DNA of 42,719 nt from Patescibacteria group bacterium (GTDB taxonomy: Bacteria > Patescibacteriota > Minisyncoccia > Phycocordibacterales > UBA2100), in the NCBI GenBank assembly GCA_038056635.1, contig JBBUFE010000001.1:7686-50404 (forward strand), read 5' to 3'. The position numbers and the translations under genes were made by a program. Each line of letters starts with the position of its first letter. The stretch's first letter is position 1. This document shows positions 9,400-42,571 of the stretch, one piece after another. The notes under the pieces are model-generated. The model did no database searches. It saw nothing but the letters and a program-made list of their open reading frames with translations, and was not told where the DNA came from.

Positions 9400-10178
9400 C
9401 AAGACTTGGACAGCATTTTTTGAAAACGCCGTGGGCGGCGCGCCCACTCGCGCGCGCGGCATACATTACTGGCGACGACACTGTTCTTGAAATCGGGCCT
9501 GGAAAAGGAGCTCTCACGCGCGAGCTTCTCTCGGTGTCAAAAAAAGTAGTCGCGATTGAAAAAGACGAGGCGCTTGTTGAAAAGTTGCGCGAAAAGTTCG
9601 CGCAAGAAATCTCCACTAACGCACTTACGGTCATTTCCGGCGATATACGCGATATCACGCCAAAAAAACTTGGGCTCGAATCTGGAAAATACATCCTGGC
9701 GGCTAATATTCCGTATTACATAACCGGAGAAATCGTCCGGCAGTTCTTGACAGCCGAAGAACAACCCCGCGCAATGGCGCTTCTTGTTCAAAAAGAGGTA
9801 GCGCAGAGAATCATCAGCAAAAAGGAAAGTCTGTTATCGCTCTCAGTTAAGGTTTATGGCTCCCCGAAAATTGTTGCCAAAGTTCCTCGAGGAAATTTCA
9901 CACCAGCGCCAAATGTTGATTCGGCAATTTTGCTCATAGACAACATTTCTCGGCAATTTTTCGCAGATTTAGATGAAAACTTATTTTTCAAAGTCATTCA
10001 CGCAGGGTTCATGTCCAAAAGAAAATATCTCCTTAACAACCTTGCCACTGTCTTCAAAAAAGAATCGGCCGCTAGCGCATTCGCAATTTGTGAAATAAGT
10101 CTGAAAGCACGCGCCGAGGATGTTCCTCTTGATGCTTGGCGAGCAATCGCCAAGCAGCTTCTAGCTTCTAGTAGCTAG
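9360..10178 (+). CDS. rsmA: 16S rRNA (adenine1518/1519-N6)-dimethyltransferase
   Basis: LGQHFL is followed by the SAM-binding motif EIGPGKGALT and NIPYYIT. The first 14 codons (MRQNRRNAKIGVGA) are encoded by MITE copy A. The C-terminal LLASSS and the stop are encoded by a CTAG heptamer array. Confidence 0.85.
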   Translation: MRQNRRNAKIGVGARLGQHFLKTPWAARPLARAAYITGDDTVLEIGPGKGALTRELLSVSKKVVAIEKDEALVEKLREKFAQEISTNALTVISGDIRDITPKKLGLESGKYILAANIPYYITGEIVRQFLTAEEQPRAMALLVQKEVAQRIISKKESLLSLSVKVYGSPKIVAKVPRGNFTPAPNVDSAILLIDNISRQFFADLDENLFFKVIHAGFMSKRKYLLNNLATVFKKESAASAFAICEISLKARAEDVPLDAWRAIAKQLLASSS

Positions 10179-10240
10179 CTTCTAGGAATATTGTCTTTTG
10201 CTTTTCTAGCAGCTAGAAGCTAGTCCCTAGCAACTATCTT
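10157..10240. repeat. CTAG-heptamer hairpin element (empty form)
   Basis: The left arm is GCTTCTA GCTTCTA GTAGCTA GCTTCTA (10157-10184), followed by a 21-nt spacer/loop. The right arm is CTAGCAG CTAGAAG CTAGTCC CTAGCAA CTATCTT (10206-10240). It covers the stop codons of both convergent genes. Confidence 0.8.
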
Positions 10241-10725: not shown

Positions 10726-10760
10726 CTATACGCTATACGCTATACGCTATACGCTATGCC
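10726..10760 (+). repeat. (CTATACG)x4 plus degenerate fifth unit containing the start codon
   Basis: CTATACG occurs at 10726, 10733, 10740 and 10747. CTATGCC at 10754-10760 contains the ATG at 10756. Confidence 0.85.
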
Positions 10761-16911: not shown

Positions 16912-17568
16912 ATGGCAATCGCTGCAAATGAAGCCGATGTGAACGAACAAGAGCTCGCCAAGCGGCTTGCGGAGCGATTCGTGCAGTTGCCAAAAGTCGT
17001 TCAGAACGCGATTACCTCCGCCGAAATCGAAAAACGGCTGCGCAAACTTGCTGATACGCATAAATTACATCTGGACCAATGGGAACTGCTTGAGAACGAA
17101 GTGCGCCTAACCGTTTACGGCTTCCAACAAACGGAAGATTTGTCTAAAAATATCGAGAATGAAGTCGGAGTCTCCAAGGAAACTGCCGACGCGCTTACAT
17201 CTGATATATCGCAAAATATTTTCGAGCCCATCCGCGAAGAGCTTGAGCGCGAGCTAGAGTCTCCGGACGCAAAAGAGAAAAAGGTTGGCGAGCTTGACGA
17301 GGTCCGCTCGGAAATACTCGGAGATAAGCCGGCAGCCCCTATACGAGATACGAGAGACGAGAGACGAGATACGATTGTCGCTCCCCCCATACCAGATACA
17401 CGATACGCGATACCCGATACTATTCCTGTCCTGCCTTCTACCCCGCCTCCGCCGCCAAGCACCGAAAAATCTATCCGCGCGCCGCTCTCATCTTCGTACA
17501 CATCTCAAGCGCCAAGCCACGAACGCATCGCCACAGAAGGAGACCCGTATCGCGAACCGACGGCTTAG
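16912..17568 (+). CDS. acidic, Pro-rich soluble protein, unknown function
   Basis: 218-aa ORF. Residues encoded by 17341-17424 come from 12 in-phase heptamer units. The stop codon lies in a CTAG array. Confidence 0.45.
   Translation: MAIAANEADVNEQELAKRLAERFVQLPKVVQNAITSAEIEKRLRKLADTHKLHLDQWELLENEVRLTVYGFQQTEDLSKNIENEVGVSKETADALTSDISQNIFEPIREELERELESPDAKEKKVGELDEVRSEILGDKPAAPIRDTRDERRDTIVAPPIPDTRYAIPDTIPVLPSTPPPPPSTEKSIRAPLSSSYTSQAPSHERIATEGDPYREPTA
17341..17424 (+). repeat. 12 in-phase heptamer units inside an ORF
   Basis: The units are ATACGAG ATACGAG AGACGAG AGACGAG ATACGAT TGTCGCT CCCCCCA TACCAGA TACACGA TACGCGA TACCCGA TACTATT. Confidence 0.8.
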
Positions 17569-18055
17569 CTTCTAGCTTCTAGGGACTAGCTTCTAGGTAT
17601 AACCGCGTAACTCATAGCTTCTAGAAAATATGACAGAGATAATCAAGTCGCACAAAGATTTAATAGTTTGGCAAAAGTCCGTACAACTTTCTCTCATAAT
17701 TTACCGCATAACTAGTGATTTCCCTCCGCGAGAAATGTACGCTCTTTCTTCACAAATGCGACGAGCAGCTGTTTCAATTCCGTCCAATATCGCAGAAGGA
17801 AAATCTCGTGGAACAAGAAAAGATTTCGCGCATTTTCTGCACATGTCATATGGTTCCGCTGCTGAACTGGAAACGCAGTTACTAATCGCCAAACAATTGA
17901 ATTTCTGCGAGGATGAGAAATTTAACGAAACGAATTCACTGCTATCCGAAGTGAGCAAGATGTTGCGTGTTATGATAGAGAAACTGGAGACTAGTTAACT
18001 AGCGGCTGCTTTTGTTTTGCCTAGAAGCTAGAAGCTGGTCCCTAGCAGCTAATCC
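17563..18055 (+). mobile_element. inverted-repeat-flanked cassette carrying a four-helix-bundle gene
   Basis: The left arm is GCTTCTA GCTTCTA GGGACTA GCTTCTA (17568-17595). The right arm is CTAGAAG CTAGAAG CTGGTCC CTAGCAG CTAATCC (18021-18055). CTAGGGACTAGCTTCTAG in the left arm pairs at 17 of 18 positions with CTAGAAGCTGGTCCCTAG in the right arm. Confidence 0.45.
17630..17998 (+). CDS. four-helix-bundle protein (23S rRNA intervening-sequence protein / Avd-like family)
   Basis: 122 aa. The pattern DLIVWQKS...L...IY.IT..FP..E.YALSSQMRRAAVSIPSNIAEG...R....F..FL..S.GS..ELETQL is the hallmark of this family. Confidence 0.85.
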   Translation: MTEIIKSHKDLIVWQKSVQLSLIIYRITSDFPPREMYALSSQMRRAAVSIPSNIAEGKSRGTRKDFAHFLHMSYGSAAELETQLLIAKQLNFCEDEKFNETNSLLSEVSKMLRVMIEKLETS

Positions 18056-18057
18056 AT

Positions 18058-18537
18058 ATGCAATTCCAAGTCCCGCAGTTTATTGAAGTTGAAGATAAGA
18101 TTTTCGGTCCTCTCACCTTCAGACAATTCGTTTATTTGGCGGGAGGGGCAGGGGCATGCTATGTGCTTTGGCGAATTTTCCCGTCCTACATCGCGGCTCC
18201 TCTTATTTTGGGCACTGGCGGACTGGCTGTTGCTCTTGCTTTCTTGCAATACAACGGCAGACCTTTTATAAGCGCCCTTGAGCACGGATTCTACTTCCTA
18301 ATAAAGACCAAGCTCTATCTGTGGAGCAATAAGACTGCGCAAATTAAGAAAGGGGTCCGCGATGAGGAGGCCGAAAACCGCGTCATTAGGAAACCGCTTG
18401 CATATATTCCAAAACTATCAGGCAGCAAACTGCATGAACTCGCATGGAGCTTGGACATCAAGGAACGCATCGCCGCCGGCGTCGCAAGCGAAGACGAGCT
18501 TGGGTCCGACTCGGTGATGCCGATGAGCAGGCAATAG
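18058..18537 (+). CDS. PrgI-family (VirB3-like) T4SS membrane protein
   Basis: MQFQVPQFIEVEDKIFGPLTFRQFVYLAGGAGACYVLW is followed by a second hydrophobic helix, the typical PrgI N-terminal signature. The gene lies just upstream of virB4. Confidence 0.7.
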   Translation: MQFQVPQFIEVEDKIFGPLTFRQFVYLAGGAGACYVLWRIFPSYIAAPLILGTGGLAVALAFLQYNGRPFISALEHGFYFLIKTKLYLWSNKTAQIKKGVRDEEAENRVIRKPLAYIPKLSGSKLHELAWSLDIKERIAAGVASEDELGSDSVMPMSRQ

Positions 18538-18660
18538 AAATTAGGCAATGGGGAATAGTGAAATACATAAAACGGATTCAAATATAAAAGTATGCAAACG
18601 CAAAAACATCCCAGCCTCTGTATCGAGTCAAACTTTTGCCTAGTGCCTTTTGCCTAGCGC
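18529..18660. repeat. inverted 14-mer (2x7) arrays
   Basis: The left array is AGGCAATAGAAATT AGGCAATGGGGAAT (18529-18556) and contains the PrgI stop. The right array is CTTTTGCCTAGTGC CTTTTGCCTAGCGC (18633-18660). The AGGCAA and TTGCCT cores are complementary. Confidence 0.6.
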
Positions 18661-18669
18661 TTATTCTAT

Positions 18670-19341
18670 ATGCCGAATCTTAAAACCAACGCCCCAAGCA
18701 GCAAATCCACGCAGGAATTCGTCCCTGTGCGCGAAGTGCGAGACGGAACTATTGTTTTAAAAGATGGCGGGCTCCGCGCCGTGCTTCTTGCCTCCTCGAT
18801 AAACTTCGCGCTTAAGTCGGAGGACGAGCAGACGGCATTTATTTCCCAGTTTCAGAACTTTCTGAACTCGCTCGATTTTTCAGTGCAAATTTTCGTAGAG
18901 TCCCGCATGCTTGATATTCGTCCCTACGTAGCAACATTGGAAGCGGCATTCAAAGAACAGCTCGACGACTTGATGCGAATTCAGATTCGCGAGTATATAG
19001 AGTTCGTCAGAAGTTTCGCCGAGTCGGCGAACATCATGACTAAAAACTTCTTCGTGGTCGTGCCATACTCTCCGACGGCAATCGGCAGGGTAACCGGGCA
19101 TTCATCAATCTTTCCGTGGGGTCAAAAGAAAGGGGGCGCCTCCGAAGCAGAGAGCCGGTCGTTCGGCGAGCAAGTGTCCCAGCTTGAACAGCGCGTGGCG
19201 ATTGTCCAGCAAGGGCTAGTGCGGACAGGCGTACGCACGGTGCAGCTGGGAACCGAGGAAGCGATAGAGCTTTTGTATAAATTGTTCAACCCCGGCGAGG
19301 AGGGAAAGCCGATGCCGTTGGAAACAGCTTCTAGAGGCTAG
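18670..19341 (+). CDS. T4SS-associated protein resembling the N-terminal domain of Gram-positive VirB4/TraE-type ATPases
   Basis: 223 aa. The pattern VPVREVRDGTIVLKDGGLRAVLLASSINFALKSEDEQTAFISQFQNFLNSLDFSVQIFV is recalled from memory of VirB4-like N-termini and was not searched. The last 4 codons and the stop lie in a CTAG array. Confidence 0.5.
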   Translation: MPNLKTNAPSSKSTQEFVPVREVRDGTIVLKDGGLRAVLLASSINFALKSEDEQTAFISQFQNFLNSLDFSVQIFVESRMLDIRPYVATLEAAFKEQLDDLMRIQIREYIEFVRSFAESANIMTKNFFVVVPYSPTAIGRVTGHSSIFPWGQKKGGASEAESRSFGEQVSQLEQRVAIVQQGLVRTGVRTVQLGTEEAIELLYKLFNPGEEGKPMPLETASRG

Positions 19342-19417
19342 CTTCTAGCTGCTAGAAAATACAAATACCATGCACCACATTACAAACCTAGAACCTAGAA
19401 GCTAGTCCCTAGAAGCT
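19327..19417. repeat. CTAG-heptamer hairpin element (empty form) between the two VirB4-related ORFs
   Basis: The left arm is GCTTCTA GAGGCTA GCTTCTA GCTGCTA (19327-19354), followed by a 33-nt loop. The right arm is CTAGAAC CTAGAAG CTAGTCC CTAGAAG CT (19388-19417). It runs straight into the ATG at 19418. Confidence 0.8.
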
Positions 19418-34014: not shown

Positions 34015-34015
34015 A

Positions 34016-34098
34016 GCTTCTAGCTTCTAGCTTCTAGGGGCTAGAAACAATATCTGTATTGTACTAGAAGCTAGTAGCTAGTCCCTAGCAGCTATTCA
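34016..34098. repeat. CTAG-heptamer hairpin element (empty form)
   Basis: The left arm is GCTTCTA x3 plus GGGGCTA (34016-34043), followed by a 20-nt loop. The right arm is CTAGAAG CTAGTAG CTAGTCC CTAGCAG CTATTCA (34064-34098). It spans exactly from the ruvC start to the yebC stop. Confidence 0.8.
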
Positions 34099-39184: not shown

Positions 39185-39622
39185 ATGAAGTCGCCTGCTG
39201 TAAGTATGGAAGGGTTGGAAAAAATGGCGTGCGAGTTTGCGACGCGTCTCACTCCTAAAAAAGACGGCGCGACGGTAGCGGCGCTTTCGGGAGACTTGGG
39301 TGCAGGGAAAACTGCTTTTGCGAAGGCGCTCGCGCACGCATACGGCATCAAGGAGGATGTCACGAGCCCTACATATGTAATTGAAAAAATTTACATTCCA
39401 GCAAAAGGCCCGTTTTCCCGTTTCATTCACATTGACGCATATCGATTAAACGGCGCGCACGACCTTGAAGTGCTCGGTTGGAGAGAGTTGCTCCTCGAAC
39501 CATCCAACCTTATCCTTCTTGAGTGGCCGGAGAGGGTGGAAGGAGCAATACCCGCCGACGCAATACGAATTTCACTAGAATTTGTGGACGAAAATATGCG
39601 GGAAGTGACAATCGAAGAATGA
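39185..39622 (+). CDS. tsaE: tRNA t6A37 biosynthesis ATPase TsaE
   Basis: 145 aa with GDLGAGKTAFAKAL, then SPTY and HIDAYR, the YjeE/TsaE signature. Confidence 0.85.
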   Translation: MKSPAVSMEGLEKMACEFATRLTPKKDGATVAALSGDLGAGKTAFAKALAHAYGIKEDVTSPTYVIEKIYIPAKGPFSRFIHIDAYRLNGAHDLEVLGWRELLLEPSNLILLEWPERVEGAIPADAIRISLEFVDENMREVTIEE

Positions 39623-40066
39623 ATTATGAATATAGAATATAGAATAATGAAGACATGATCAAAGATTTTACTGACCTAAATACTTGGAAAGAGGGGCACA
39701 AACTTGTCCTGTTCACTTATAGGATATGCAAAGCTTTTCCCAAGGAAGAACTTTTTGCGTTAGCAAGCCAAATGAAACGAGCTTCAACCTCTATAACCTC
39801 AAACTTGGCAGAAGGCTTTGGCAGAAAAGGTTATAAAGAAAAAGTTCAATTTTATTACTTATCAAACGGATCTTTAGTCGAATTAAAAAATCAACTGATT
39901 ATTGCAAGAGATGTTGGTTATATAAACGGGCAGTTATTCACAGATGGAATGAGGCAAGCAAATCTTACACAGCAACTTCTGCAGGGACTTATCACAAAGT
40001 CAAAATCTTTCCTTCCGAACCATGATTCATAAATCATCATTCTTTATTCAATATTCATAAGATGCT
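39620..40066 (+). mobile_element. second inverted-repeat-flanked cassette carrying a four-helix-bundle gene
   Basis: The left array is TGAATTA TGAATAT AGAATAT AGAATAA TGAAGAC (39620-39654), running exactly from the tsaE stop to the cassette ATG. The right array is ATCATCA TTCTTTA TTCAATA TTCATAA GATGCT (40033-40066). The arms are complementary at 24 of 27 aligned positions. Confidence 0.45.
39655..40032 (+). CDS. four-helix-bundle protein (23S rRNA intervening-sequence protein / Avd-like family)
   Basis: 125 aa. DLNTWKEGHKLVLFTYRICKAFPKEELFALASQMKRASTSITSNLAEGFGR...GSLVELKNQL has the same family signature as 17630-17998. Confidence 0.85.
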   Translation: MIKDFTDLNTWKEGHKLVLFTYRICKAFPKEELFALASQMKRASTSITSNLAEGFGRKGYKEKVQFYYLSNGSLVELKNQLIIARDVGYINGQLFTDGMRQANLTQQLLQGLITKSKSFLPNHDS

Positions 40067-42508
40067 ATGGCCGAAAAGGACACAAAAAAGAATAGCAAAG
40101 ATGGCCGCGGTGACATCAAGCGCCTCGTCCTTCTCGACGCGCACGCGATTATCCATCGCGCGTATCACGCGCTCCCTGACTTTTCATCATCAAAGGGAGA
40201 ACCGACGGGCGCGCTTTACGGCCTCATAACAATGCTTCTGAAAATCATCGAGGATTTGAAGCCGGATTATATTTCTGCGTGCTTTGACCTCCCAGACCCT
40301 ACACATCGCCACATTGCATACGAAGGTTACAAGGCGACGCGCGCAAAAACGGAAGACGCGCTCGTGTCCCAGCTCATACGCTCCCGCGCGGTGTTTAAGG
40401 CGTTTGGAATTCTAACATACGAGGCAAAGGGTTTTGAGGCCGATGATATTTTGGGAACAGTTGCAAAAGGCCTAAAAAAACGCTCCGATATTGAAATTGT
40501 GATAGCTTCGGGCGACCTCGACACTCTCCAACTTGTCGACGGCAAGCGCGTAAAAGTGTACACGCTCCGCAAGGGTTTGAATGACACCGTTATATATGAC
40601 GAAAATGGGGTGGAAGAGAGGTACGGATTCGGTCCGGAGCGCATCCCCGACTACAAAGGATTAAGCGGGGACGCATCAGACAATATAAAGGGAATTACCG
40701 GTATCGGAGAAAAAACCGCTACTAATTTGATATTGCAATTTGGTTCGGTTGAGGAAATTTACAAAACGCTCAAGAAAAATCCTGAAGAATTTGAAAAACG
40801 AGGCATCACTCCGCGAGTCGTGAAAATGTTGAGTGAAGGAGAAAAAGATGCAGTTTTCTCAAAAATGCTCGCGACCATTCGCGCGGATGTACCCATTTCG
40901 TACGAAGTGCCGGAAAAAACTTGGAGCGTGGAAGAGAACCTGCAAAACATCCTTTCTCTTTGCGACGAGTTGGAATTTTACTCGCTGAAGAAGCGTCTCG
41001 TCGCAAAATCAAAATCGGAGAGCTCGCGGGATAGTTCGCAAGAAGAGGAAGCGGTTGATAAAGATGCGCTTGCAGAAACATCAATTGCGCTTTGGCTTCT
41101 CCATTCCGACAGGACGAGCCCGACACACGATGACATTTTGAGGTATGCAAAAACCGAGGATTTTGATTCGGCGCGTAAAATGATTTTTGAAGAGCTGGAA
41201 AAGGCCGGACGATTGCAGGAAGTGTATGACCGCATCGAACGGCCGCTCATTCCCGTCATACAGCGGATGAACAAGGACGGAGTTTTTTTGGATGTGCCGT
41301 ATCTTGAAAAATTAAAGGCAGAGTACAGAGAGGAGTTGGCGAAAATAGAGGGGCGAATTTTCAAGTCCGCTGGGCACGAGTTCAATGTAAGCTCGCCGAA
41401 ACAGCTAGCTGTTGTTTTGTTCGACGAATTGAAGCTCGTCCCTCTAAAACAGAAAAAAACACCCGGAGGCGCCAGAACCACGCGCGAAGACGAGTTGGAA
41501 AAAATGACAGCGCTTCACCCTGCGATTGCCGATGTGCTCTCTTATCGCGAACTTTCCAAACTGCTCTCCACTTATATTGAGAAAATGCCGGCTCTGGTCG
41601 CAGAAGATGGCAAACTGCACGCTGAATTTCTTCAGGCGGGGACTACAACCGGGCGAATTGCGTCCCAAAATCCGAACCTGCAAAACATTCCCATTAAAAG
41701 CGATTATGGCCGGCGCGTCCGCTCGGCGTTTACTGCTACCCCCGGGCATGTTCTCGTTGCGCTGGATTATTCGCAGATAGAGCTTCGAATCGCGGCGGGA
41801 CTTTCGGGAGACAAAAAGTTGCTCAAAGTATTTCAAGAAAAAGGCGATGTGCATACCGCCGTTGCATCGCAGGTTTTTGGCGTTCCAGCTGAAAAAGTAG
41901 ACTACGAAACGCGCCGACGAGCGAAGGTTATTAATTTTGGAATTCTATACGGAATGGGCGTGAACGCCCTCCAGTCGAACTTGGGAACAAACATCTCGCG
42001 CGAGGAATCCGCCAAATTTCTTTCGGAGTATTTCAAAAACTTTTCGGGTCTGGCTTTGTGGATTGAGAAAACGAAAATTGATGCCGCGCGCAGGGGATTT
42101 ACTGAAACTCTTTTCGGACGACGGCGATATTTTTCTGGTTTCAACTCGCCGCTTCCCAATTTGCGCGCGCAGGCGGGGAGAATGGCGGTGAACGCGCCGA
42201 TACAAGGCACGCAAGCCGACATCATCAAGCTCGCGATGGTGGAAGCCGACAAGCTTATAGAAGAAAAGAACTGGCGGGGGAAAGTGCGGCTTGTTCTGCA
42301 AATTCACGACGAACTCGTCTATGAGGTTGCAGAATCAGATGCAGACCTGCCCGCGCCAGCTGGCTGGCAGGCGGGAAAAATCGCCCGCGAGTTATGCAAG
42401 GCGATGGAATCAGTTGTTCCGAAAGGACAATTATCCGGCGTGCCGATAGAAGTCGAAATTGCGATTGGGGAAGACTGGGGAAATTTGAAGAGAGTATCTG
42501 GTATATAG
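40067..42508 (+). CDS. polA: DNA polymerase I
   Basis: 813 aa with the 5' nuclease N-terminus LLDAHAIIHRAYHAL. The polymerase motifs are A (LDYSQIELR), B (RRRAKVINFGILYGM) and C (LQIHDELVYE). Confidence 0.9.
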   Translation: MAEKDTKKNSKDGRGDIKRLVLLDAHAIIHRAYHALPDFSSSKGEPTGALYGLITMLLKIIEDLKPDYISACFDLPDPTHRHIAYEGYKATRAKTEDALVSQLIRSRAVFKAFGILTYEAKGFEADDILGTVAKGLKKRSDIEIVIASGDLDTLQLVDGKRVKVYTLRKGLNDTVIYDENGVEERYGFGPERIPDYKGLSGDASDNIKGITGIGEKTATNLILQFGSVEEIYKTLKKNPEEFEKRGITPRVVKMLSEGEKDAVFSKMLATIRADVPISYEVPEKTWSVEENLQNILSLCDELEFYSLKKRLVAKSKSESSRDSSQEEEAVDKDALAETSIALWLLHSDRTSPTHDDILRYAKTEDFDSARKMIFEELEKAGRLQEVYDRIERPLIPVIQRMNKDGVFLDVPYLEKLKAEYREELAKIEGRIFKSAGHEFNVSSPKQLAVVLFDELKLVPLKQKKTPGGARTTREDELEKMTALHPAIADVLSYRELSKLLSTYIEKMPALVAEDGKLHAEFLQAGTTTGRIASQNPNLQNIPIKSDYGRRVRSAFTATPGHVLVALDYSQIELRIAAGLSGDKKLLKVFQEKGDVHTAVASQVFGVPAEKVDYETRRRAKVINFGILYGMGVNALQSNLGTNISREESAKFLSEYFKNFSGLALWIEKTKIDAARRGFTETLFGRRRYFSGFNSPLPNLRAQAGRMAVNAPIQGTQADIIKLAMVEADKLIEEKNWRGKVRLVLQIHDELVYEVAESDADLPAPAGWQAGKIARELCKAMESVVPKGQLSGVPIEVEIAIGEDWGNLKRVSGI

Positions 42509-42566
42509 TATCTAGTATCTTGTATGAATGCATACCAAATACAAAATACGAAATACTAAATACCAA
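42494..42566. repeat. heptamer-array hairpin (GTATNNN x5 / ATACNAA x5)
   Basis: GTATCTG GTATATA GTATCTA GTATCTT GTATGAA (42494-42528) contains the polA stop. A TGC loop follows, then ATACCAA ATACAAA ATACGAA ATACTAA ATACCAA (42532-42566). ATTCT-ATG comes next. Confidence 0.8.
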
Positions 42567-42571
42567 ATTCT

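Follow-up and report, generated by a model that had tools for sequence, protein, structure and literature searches.

Intervening sequences (IVSs) of the 23S rRNA genes of Leptospira, Coxiella burnetii and Azospirillum lipoferum are the closest described counterparts of the cassette reported here. They are inserts of approximately 400–450 nt closed in a stem by terminal inverted repeats, with a gene of the same protein family (PF05635) in the loop, tandem heptamers lying just 5′ of this ORF and an ORF orientation that follows the host transcript; they are sporadically distributed among related genomes and also exist as short ORF-less versions. The cassette shares these traits, although IVSs are hosted by the tip of an rRNA helix, whereas the cassette occupies a junction between protein-coding genes of an operon. 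Excision by RNase III characterizes 23S rRNA IVSs and could be extended to the cassette by analogy. In C. burnetii, tandem GACAGAT heptamers are found directly 5′ of the ORF, inside the stem that is cut by RNase III, and cleavage occurs at the first repeat (PMC4990558). In A. lipoferum, the PF05635 ORF is surrounded by heptamer-periodic inverted arms.

Heptanucleotide repeats, of which the cyanobacterial STRRs constitute one family, resemble the arms of the cassette. Other known families include the convergent GGGAATC pairs of Xanthomonas (PMC4692102) and the TAACTGA repeats of Beggiatoaceae (PMC4679880). Such repeats are intergenic tandem heptamers; convergent pairs are frequent among them, and many directly adjoin a start codon or extend over the stop codon of the gene upstream. 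The passages of these two papers that were searched mention no PF05635, S23 or four-helix-bundle genes alongside the repeats. Here, in contrast, a gene is enclosed between the repeats, which are the arms of its cassette.

REP/REPIN elements and their RAYT genes likewise combine a gene located between inverted short repeats with gene-free intergenic copies, which are common. However, RAYTs are IS200-like Y1 transposases, whereas the gene enclosed in the cassette belongs to PF05635, and REP arms are single palindromes whereas the arms of the cassette are tandem heptamer arrays. MITEs recall the ORF-less hairpins described below, which have both arms and the inner ends in common with the ORF-bearing cassette; yet no transposase is present, and no target-site duplication could be recognized. 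DGR accessory proteins (Avd), which are strongly basic, belong to a homologous four-helix-bundle fold family, but, unlike in DGRs, no reverse transcriptase was found among the ORFs scanned and no template/variable repeats were seen nearby.

The gene and its heptamer arms

The cassette lies in a chromosomal T4SS-like operon of a Patescibacteria group bacterium, within a 42,719-nt stretch of DNA that was analyzed as a whole (hereafter the window). Its features and flanking genes are:

16912–17568, plus strand: upstream operon gene, an ORF of 218 aa with no Pfam match
17566–17597, plus strand: left arm, TAGCTTC TAGCTTC TAGGGAC TAGCTTC TAGG, with CTAG every 7 nt
17616–17624, plus strand: extra inner heptamer unit AGCTTCTAG, 5 nt 5′ of the ATG, recognized from the repeats and the fold
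17630–17998, plus strand: PF05635/TIGR02436 (IVP) gene, 122 aa, by profile match; predicted four-helix bundle by family
17999–18019, plus strand: T/G-rich inner spacer CTAGCGGCTGCTTTTGTTTTG, also kept in the loops of ORF-less hairpins
18020–18051, plus strand: right arm, CCTAGAAG CTAGAAG CTGGTCC CTAGCAG CTA, ending 6 nt 5′ of the prgI ATG
18058–18537, plus strand: downstream operon gene, PrgI family (Pfam)

A sequence-only reading of the window had recognized a PF05635-type gene interrupting an otherwise tight operon, which profile searches bear out: the 122-aa ORF matches the 23S_rRNA_IVP profile of PF05635 with E = 4.2e-40 (136.7 bits, cut-off 33.8) and TIGR02436 with 129.1 bits (threshold 24), and elsewhere in the operon, neighboring genes mostly overlap or leave gaps of 1–2 nt. 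The gene has a GC content of 42%, compared with ~50% for its neighbors. Its product is near charge-neutral by residue count. The nearest solved structure retrieved by sequence search (2GSC, E = 7e-23) is that of XCC0516, a pentameric four-helix bundle (PMC4990558). No promoter or terminator was predicted inside or at the cassette (17566–18051), and no intrinsic terminator at the arms; nor does a T-run follow the ORF-less hairpins described below. Rfam and tRNA scans of the window returned zero matches, and the site is located between two protein-coding genes, not in an rRNA helix (e.g., helix 25 or 45).

The stop codon TAG of the 218-aa ORF (17566–17568) doubles as unit 1 of the left arm. The 17 of 18 paired positions first noticed between the arms (CTAGGGACTAGCTTCTAG, 17579–17596, versus CTAGAAGCTGGTCCCTAG, 18028–18045) are real and extend to 24 nt at 92%, with a second register, shifted by 7 nt, that covers 17 nt at 100%. 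The CTAGNNNCTAGNNNCTAG pattern occurs 21 times in the window for 0.03 expected. The flank-to-flank duplex reaches −54.5 kcal/mol (z = −5.1), a strength attained by none of 500 dinucleotide shuffles, and the flanks of the cassette are the best-pairing of the 47 ORFs of the window (mean −24.1, sd 8.9). In a 508-nt fold, the gene is closed by the arms in the MFE and centroid structures alike (z = −2.5), and the predicted partner of the inner unit AGCTTCTAG is the right-arm unit closest to the gene.

The window contains four further elements of this type:

10156–10236, plus strand: ORF-less hairpin of the same arm family, 3′ of rsmA/ksgA (z = −1.5)
19326–19417, plus strand: ORF-less hairpin of the same arm family, TraC-like/VirB4-like junction (z = −8.3)
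34015–34094, strand unassigned: ORF-less hairpin of the same arm family, yebC/ruvC junction (z of about −3.0 on either strand)
39617–40062, plus strand: second IVP cassette, tsaE/polA junction, with its ORF at 39655–40032 (PF05635, E = 2e-31)

The ORF-less hairpins are closely fitted to their neighbors. At 19326–19417, the left arm contains the upstream stop codon and the VirB4 ATG directly follows the right arm; at 10156–10236, where the fold alone is not significant, the rsmA stop codon is inside the left arm; at 34015–34094, the ruvC start codon abuts an arm, yebC and ruvC being both on the minus strand. Terminal inverted repeats are common to all three and to the ORF-bearing element, and their loops hold the inner ends of the IVP cassette. 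To judge from these sequence features, the hairpins seem to have arisen from the cassette by internal deletion rather than to be targets that existed before it. The second cassette is bounded by other heptamers than the CTAG units of the cassette at 17566–18051, namely GAATGAA TTATGAA TATAGAA TATAGAA TAATGAA on the left and ATTCATA AATCATC ATTCTTT ATTCAAT ATTCATA on the right. The gap between the PrgI and TraC-like genes (18538–18669), which by eye resembles a decayed element, folds no better than shuffles (z = +1.2).

Distribution of the gene and its arms

In close relatives (66–100% identity), the gene and its arms are both kept at the same site, every relative examined carrying an orthologous cassette with a 4-unit CTAG array on either side; the unit is conserved at this site within a clade of Paceibacteria. 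Among these relatives, the dN/dS of the gene is 0.09–0.16, a sign of strong purifying selection that sets it apart from the Coxiella IVS ORF, reportedly decaying. The insertion at the T4SS-like site is not recent: purifying selection acts on the gene, which persists there with its arms down to a protein identity of 66%. Such long vertical retention also fits a domesticated host function.

The gene is missing from most of 80 orthologous operons, in which 16 IVP genes are found in 13 loci, at three different junctions, with their own 7-periodic arms. Their distribution on the VirB4 tree is patchy, sister lineages having intact operons without the gene, and the nearest IVP relatives occupy different junctions, a pattern that fits the mobile cassette envisaged earlier. 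Comparison with IVP-less sister operons yielded no clean boundary and no definable target-site duplication. IVPs that are 58–66% identical carry unrelated heptamers, which argues against a slow co-evolution of protein and repeat; the idea of a fixed cognate heptamer for each IVP subfamily was rejected on the same grounds.

Equivalent units with different heptamers are found at other junctions of the same operon, in other operons and in rRNA genes in other phyla. Between accB and accC of Xanthomonas, an IVP gene is flanked by inverted GGGAATC arrays that belong to exactly the family described in the passages on these repeats (PMC4692102). Periodic arrays accompany 11 or 12 of 13 IVP loci of cyanobacterial plasmids, several of which are inside cas operons. 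Exceptions to inverted arms are 3 of the 13 plasmid loci, where the arrays are direct, and one locus (L091) without arms; the arms of three others (L044, L054, and L083) pair poorly.

IVP flanks show a lag-7 autocorrelation of 0.48/0.49, compared with 0.28/0.29 for 613 control genes (p = 6e-8 and 1e-7), and lag 7 is the best lag in 70% of IVP flanks versus 9% of controls. A plain stem leaves this 7-nt periodicity unexplained. Among stringent period-7 arrays, 26% are within 70 nt of an IVP ORF, a zone that represents 0.9% of the sequence. The left arm shuts all three reading frames just 5′ of the IVP start in 33% of cases versus 7.8% of controls (p = 0.0025), so that the idea of every left arm closing all frames is only partly true.

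The reading that we favor, with a probability of roughly 0.6, is that of an IVS-type, promoterless and mobile gene cassette lodged in an operon junction. Judged by its sequence organization, the cassette and the ORF-containing 23S rRNA IVSs are elements of one kind; the gene-in-stem parallel drawn by the sequence-only reading indeed has its match in the arms of A. lipoferum and in the heptamers of Coxiella (PMC4990558). The promoterless PF05635 gene, which has four or five tandem heptamers on each side in mutually inverted arrays, would be transcribed by read-through from the host operon, because nearly all copies examined are co-oriented with the flanking genes and no internal promoter or terminator is predicted. 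In the transcript, the arms would pair into an imperfect stem of ~25–30 bp. The insert would thus become a loop, and the stop codon of the upstream gene, which is part of the outermost left unit, would come to lie beside the downstream start codon, just past the right arm. By analogy with rRNA IVSs, this stem may be a substrate of RNase III; since neither rRNA nor polycistronic mRNA needs religation, the insert could be cut out harmlessly. The IVP protein would be the element's own factor and may recognize the repeat arrays, and the ORF-less hairpins would be its internal-deletion, MITE-like derivatives. An excess of G:U over A:C among the arm mismatches, as expected of a sense-strand RNA stem, is not seen (12 versus 10), and most mismatches are of the transversion type; DNA may therefore be the level at which the inverted repeat acts.

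Alternatives to the proposed mobile cassette

The best-surviving alternative, which we nonetheless regard as improbable, treats the heptamer arrays and hairpins as repeats in their own right, similar to STRRs or REPs and either made by slippage or moved by another enzyme, into which IVP genes insert or within which they survive best; the sequence-only reading had also considered the hairpins as landing sites. Heptamer arrays do vastly outnumber IVP genes: a metagenome scan with the right-arm pattern found an IVP at 2 of 80 loci, the matches being mostly lone CTAGTCC/GGGACTAG arrays on unrelated GC-rich contigs, and 37 of 50 period-7 arrays in Paceibacteria loci are not beside an IVP. Moreover, the direct-orientation flanks of Pseudanabaena resemble a gene inside one long array, the window has an empty hairpin at a junction that holds an IVP in other genomes, and RAYT-like (IS200-like) genes are found at the same operon junction in three relatives; in L035 and L038, a left array stands alone beside such a gene. 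However, the arm sequence varies from genome to genome among cassettes that share a junction, and the arrays run right up to the ATG of the IVP ORF and across its stop codon, with no loop remnants left, which implies that the arms travel with the gene and that the hairpins are probably not landing sites. Also at odds with independent repeats, the loops of ORF-less hairpins retain the inner ends of the cassette, and the ORF-less arrays of each genome match the type of its own loaded cassette. As for the RAYT-like genes, they carry their own, different hairpins (GGG..CCC), and were rejected as the mobilizing enzyme for this reason.

Less probable still is a domesticated regulator, i.e., an IVP that serves the host by binding heptamer operators, as DNA or RNA, both beside its own gene and at further junctions. 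It would thereby tune how the T4SS-like operon and others are expressed or processed, in a cassette that is now immobile. Retention of gene and arms to 66% identity with a low dN/dS, arms that are invariant among strain variants and hairpins of the same type at several operon junctions are all compatible with this role, as are the 4–5 units per arm, a number near the pentameric state of XCC0516 (PMC4990558). Nevertheless, the gene is absent from sister lineages whose operons are intact, unrelated operons and rRNA display the same architecture, related IVPs do not share conserved heptamers, and the 122-aa protein, as read from its sequence, has neither a DNA-binding motif nor a strong positive charge.

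It is very unlikely that the inverted repeat is a side effect of two tandem arrays sharing a palindromic CTAG core, with no pairing function. Because CTAG is palindromic, 4 of every 7 positions pair by default between any two arrays of CTAG heptamers, and both the alternative registers at a 7-nt shift and the lack of wobble bias would be expected of such a by-product. However, the pairing above this baseline comes from the triplets between the cores, whose sets are complementary between the left and right arms (CTT/AAG, GGA/TCC, CGG/CCG, CTG/CAG), and cognate arm duplexes (mean −25.3 kcal/mol) out-pair non-cognate ones (−14.8 kcal/mol; permutation p = 5e-5). In addition, the right arm is the reverse complement of the left in cassettes with non-palindromic heptamers, i.e., the one at 39.6 kb in the window, L069, L071, L082 and those of Xanthomonas and Nostoc.

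Identity of the 122-aa protein with Avd is effectively refuted, as its weak similarity to bAvd (PF22296, E = 3.6e-5) and NF033474 scores below the cut-offs (24.7 versus 40 and 22.1 versus 80 bits, respectively), no reverse transcriptase occurs among the Pfam-scanned ORFs, including all operon genes within ~5 kb, and the polymorphisms that distinguish strains in this ORF are mainly synonymous, without adenine specificity.

rRNA genes and operon junctions as possible hosts of one unit

IVS elements have so far been regarded as an oddity of rRNA genes, and PF05635 has counted as a very abundant family that lacks a function. The comparisons presented here suggest that the gene and its arms are a mobile cassette that may inhabit both rRNA genes and ordinary operons in several bacterial phyla, a single unit that would colonize operon junctions (T4SS-like, tsaE–polA, accB–accC, and cas operons) and leave ORF-less hairpins behind. 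Three observations described separately until now are thereby linked: rRNA IVSs, the “four helix bundle protein” genes scattered in operons and cas loci, and the excess of intergenic heptanucleotide repeats. The accB–IVP–accC locus of Xanthomonas, with its GGGAATC arms, and Nostoc offer tractable systems for the study of function.

A broader proposal, which we put forward tentatively and with more doubt than belief, is that a single family of mobile elements spans phyla, with PF05635 proteins as one of its halves and tandem-heptamer arrays as the other. ORF-bearing units would be its autonomous members, intergenic heptamer repeats and hairpins (STRRs, the Xanthomonas GGGAATC pairs, the hairpins of the window, and the short ORF-less rRNA IVSs) would be non-autonomous ones, and the pentamer would recognize the arrays for spread or for RNA processing. 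If true, the existence of such a family would account for where rRNA IVSs came from and for why bacterial genomes have, as has long been noted, too many heptanucleotide repeats.

An inverted-repeat-bounded gene in a T4SS-like operon

Close to dnaA and dnaN lies a chromosomal T4SS-like operon that includes TraC-like, VirB4-like and T4SS-pilin genes. Between a 218-aa ORF (orf218) and a PrgI-family gene (prgI), this operon carries a gene coding for a 122-aa four-helix-bundle protein of the 23S rRNA intervening sequence (IVS) family, hereafter IVP. Its GC content (42%) makes it AT-richer than the neighbouring genes. Most other genes of the operon overlap or are spaced by 1-2 nt. By sequence, the nearest relative of solved structure is XCC0516 (PDB 2GSC, a five-chain deposition); scores of the IVP against the DGR Avd models fell under the model thresholds.

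PF05635 genes and heptamer-repeat features in the window
17630-17998, + strand: IVP gene, 122 aa, PF05635 (23S_rRNA_IVP) E=4.2e-40, also matched by TIGR02436 ("four helix bundle protein")
39655-40032: second PF05635 gene (HMM search), tsaE/polA junction; whole cassette 39617-40062
10156-10236: ORF-less CTAG-heptamer hairpin, after rsmA
19326-19417: ORF-less CTAG-heptamer hairpin, junction of the TraC-like and VirB4-like genes
34015-34094: ORF-less CTAG-heptamer hairpin, yebC/ruvC junction
2706-2809: heptamer hairpin/array of other type, between dksA-like and comM-like genes
42494-42571: heptamer hairpin/array of other type, after polA (z=-4.5)
10726-10757: (CTATACG)x4 array, before a start codon
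5999-6031: AATTTTT array, also at a gene junction

The arms that the sequence-only reading had placed around the gene are present, with 17 of their 18 positions paired; a repeat search extended the pairing to 24 nt at 92% and recovered a second register, one heptamer off, of 17 nt at 100%. The flank-to-flank duplex (-54.5 kcal/mol) is the best among the 47 ORFs of the window and was reached by none of 500 shuffles, and in the predicted fold the gene is closed by its arms. An IVP gene bracketed by inverted heptamer arms within an operon is a real observation. The CTAG-heptamer motif occurs 21 times in the window (0.03 expected), all copies being confined to this cassette and three short ORF-less hairpins. 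Upstream of the left arm by about 150-230 nt, a further 7-nt-periodic stretch (GATACGA/GAGACGA, 17340-17421) lies within the coding region of orf218, where it gives the low-complexity segment IRDTRDERRDT...PDTRYAIPDT.

In all three ORF-less hairpins the stop codon of the upstream gene is found within one arm's outer part or immediately before it, and in two of them the other arm leads directly into the downstream ATG. When the cassette is stripped of its ORF and aligned to them, the hairpins match it in both arms, with no shift of register, and in the T/G-rich segment preceding the right arm; this is the pattern expected of internal-deletion derivatives and suggests that they arose from cassettes.

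The PF05635 gene between tsaE and polA is likewise closed by its arms in the predicted fold. Its heptamers (GAATGAA/TATAGAA versus ATTCATA/ATTCTTT) are of a type unlike the CTAG arms; the tsaE stop codon lies within the first arm unit, and the right arm is followed, after 5 nt, by the polA ATG.

Conservation at one site and scattered occurrence across Paceibacteria

The exact IVP protein and variants at 97, 93, 92, 81, 78 and 68% identity, drawn from several Hainich groundwater assemblies and Kaiserbacteria-like MAGs, occupy one syntenic position throughout, and every one is flanked on both sides by 4-unit CTAG arrays; two more species representatives (L032 and L034) have this cassette too, at tblastn identities of 69 and 66%. 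Across relatives the CTAG cores are invariant, the inter-core triplets vary with complementary left/right vocabularies (CTT/AAG, GGA/TCC, CGG/CCG, CTG/CAG), and whole heptamer units are gained or lost. The dN/dS ratio among IVP orthologues is 0.09-0.16, and the protein is therefore functional. In co-occurring strain variants (L004, L005 and L006, 3001-3369, compared with 17630-17998 of the window), divergence of the IVP ORF amounts to 5-8% and falls in mosaic tracts (nt 69-283) of largely synonymous changes. No differences occur in the arms, and divergence is 0-0.2% in most flanking genes (up to about 1.5% in a few). This points to recombination with diverged alleles and is not the adenine-specific mutagenesis of a DGR.

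A VirB4-based scan of species-representative genomes gave 80 orthologous loci across Paceibacteria, most of which lack a PF05635 gene; in the nearest IVP-less loci, 46-150 nt separate the orf218 homologue from prgI. Sixteen PF05635 genes were found in 13 loci, at three junctions: orf218|prgI, prgI|TraC-like and TraC-like|VirB4. On the VirB4 tree the IVP-bearing loci are scattered, many being sister to IVP-less loci; the nearest PF05635 relatives occupy different junctions or different operons.

Other small genes were seen at these junctions. RAYT/IS200-like ORFs, called by the YHIYxRG...MPNHxHL motif alone, occur at orf218|prgI in three relatives (L030 4038-4820, L035 4118-4813 and L038 1990-2544), each with GGG..CCC hairpins of its own; L035 and L038 retain a left heptamer array only. 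Further selfish-looking genes (L077 2707-3370, L047 1497-1769 and L081 5016-5318) appear by eye, from sequence motifs only, to be RelE-like with an HTH antitoxin, GIY-YIG and MazF-like. In IVP-less relatives (L025-L042) a conserved TATACT/TATAAT-like box precedes the prgI ATG by 8-10 nt and may be a promoter for a prgI mRNA with a short leader or none; where the cassette is present, the position of this box is overlapped by the outermost unit of the right arm.

Heptamer-periodic flanks in other phyla and in rRNA

Beyond the clade of the window, cassettes have no CTAG arrays and carry other 7-nt-periodic arrays, in which the right arm reverse-complements the left. In the 42-nt flanks of 20 cassettes, lag-7 autocorrelation was 0.48/0.49, versus 0.28/0.29 for 613 control genes (p=6e-8 and 1e-7); L111 and L162, two of these cassettes, were found via the heptamer pattern itself and are hence biased towards periodicity. 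Lag 7 ranked first among lags in 70% of IVP flanks versus 9% of controls. Of the 50 stringent period-7 arrays detected in 1.01 Mb, 13 are no more than 70 nt away from a PF05635 ORF, a zone making up 0.9% of the sequence. Cognate arms form stronger duplexes than non-cognate ones (mean -25.3 versus -14.8 kcal/mol; permutation p=5e-5). The arrays typically reach the IVP ATG and overlap the stop codon, and in a third of left arms, versus 8% of controls, no reading frame stays open through the 30 nt next to the start. Arrays of CTAGTCC/GGGACTAG heptamers, up to 11 units and many as inverted pairs with short loops, are widespread in GC-rich metagenome contigs from soil and sediment (L102-L181), some of which also contain a cyanobacterial STRR-like CCCCAGT repeat.

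A plasmid search recovered a PF05635 ORF inside the 23S rRNA gene of an Azospirillum lipoferum chromid (rRNA context confirmed with Rfam), with inverted heptamer-periodic arms (CAGAGGA CGGATGA CAGAGGA CGGAGGA and complement). In the Coxiella IVS, three or four GACAGAT heptamers lie directly upstream of the ORF in the 28-bp terminal stem, the first of them being the site of RNase III cleavage (PMC4990558). A Xanthomonas campestris homologue of XCC0516 (L228 2424-2872; 89% identical over the aligned region) splits the accB-accC pair between inverted GGGAATC arrays, a repeat family described in PMC4692102 as G-quadruplex-forming, with ~70 convergent pairs per genome.

Among 13 plasmid-borne homologues examined irrespective of repeats, 7-periodic arrays (8-periodic in two) abut the ORF in 11-12, about seven being inverted, three direct and two one-sided; several of the genes are located within cas operons or between nrd genes. 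Examples on cyanobacterial plasmids (L223, L224, L227 and L231), mostly with heptamer or octamer arrays, lie between cas6 and cas4 (Anabaena sp. 90 and Pseudanabaena), cas10 and cmr3 (Picosynechococcus), and nrdB and nrdA-like genes (Nostoc edaphicum). CTTCTGC/CCTCTGC-type heptamers are found repeatedly beside PF05635 genes in Nostoc, Stanieria and Gemmatirosa (L233, L235, L236, L237 and L222); they resemble the Azospirillum IVS arms and, reverse-complemented, the Coxiella heptamers (PMC4990558), a likeness that may reflect a shared ancestral unit. PF05635 genes have been noted in CPR rRNA insertions and in cas loci (PMC11270868, PMC3936711); our literature search returned no paper tying them to heptamer arms or operon-junction cassettes.

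A probable mobile IVS-like element at intercistronic junctions

The anatomy, conservation, patchy distribution and recurrence of the cassette are established. The proposal that an IVS architecture has been transplanted into an mRNA holds up, given that the arms close the gene and that the Azospirillum 23S IVS has like arms; that of a mobile cassette also holds up, in keeping with the patchy distribution on the VirB4 tree and the three junctions. Hairpins acting as landing sites are a less likely arrangement than arms travelling with the gene. A role of the arms in RNA only is counted against by the lack of wobble bias and by the direct-orientation cases.

The cassette is co-oriented with the flanking genes and no promoter or terminator was predicted in it, which suggests transcription by read-through. 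The arms of such a transcript would form a long-range stem, looping out the insert and juxtaposing the upstream stop to the downstream start, and by analogy with rRNA IVSs this stem may be cut by RNase III. Candidate explanations for the 7-nt periodicity are slippage dynamics, all-frame stop codons, or one repeat per pentamer subunit. A cut in the RNA needs no religation at rRNA helix tips, nor at intercistronic junctions, which would explain the presence of the same element in both. The finding is of interest because it extends to several phyla and lends itself to direct testing.
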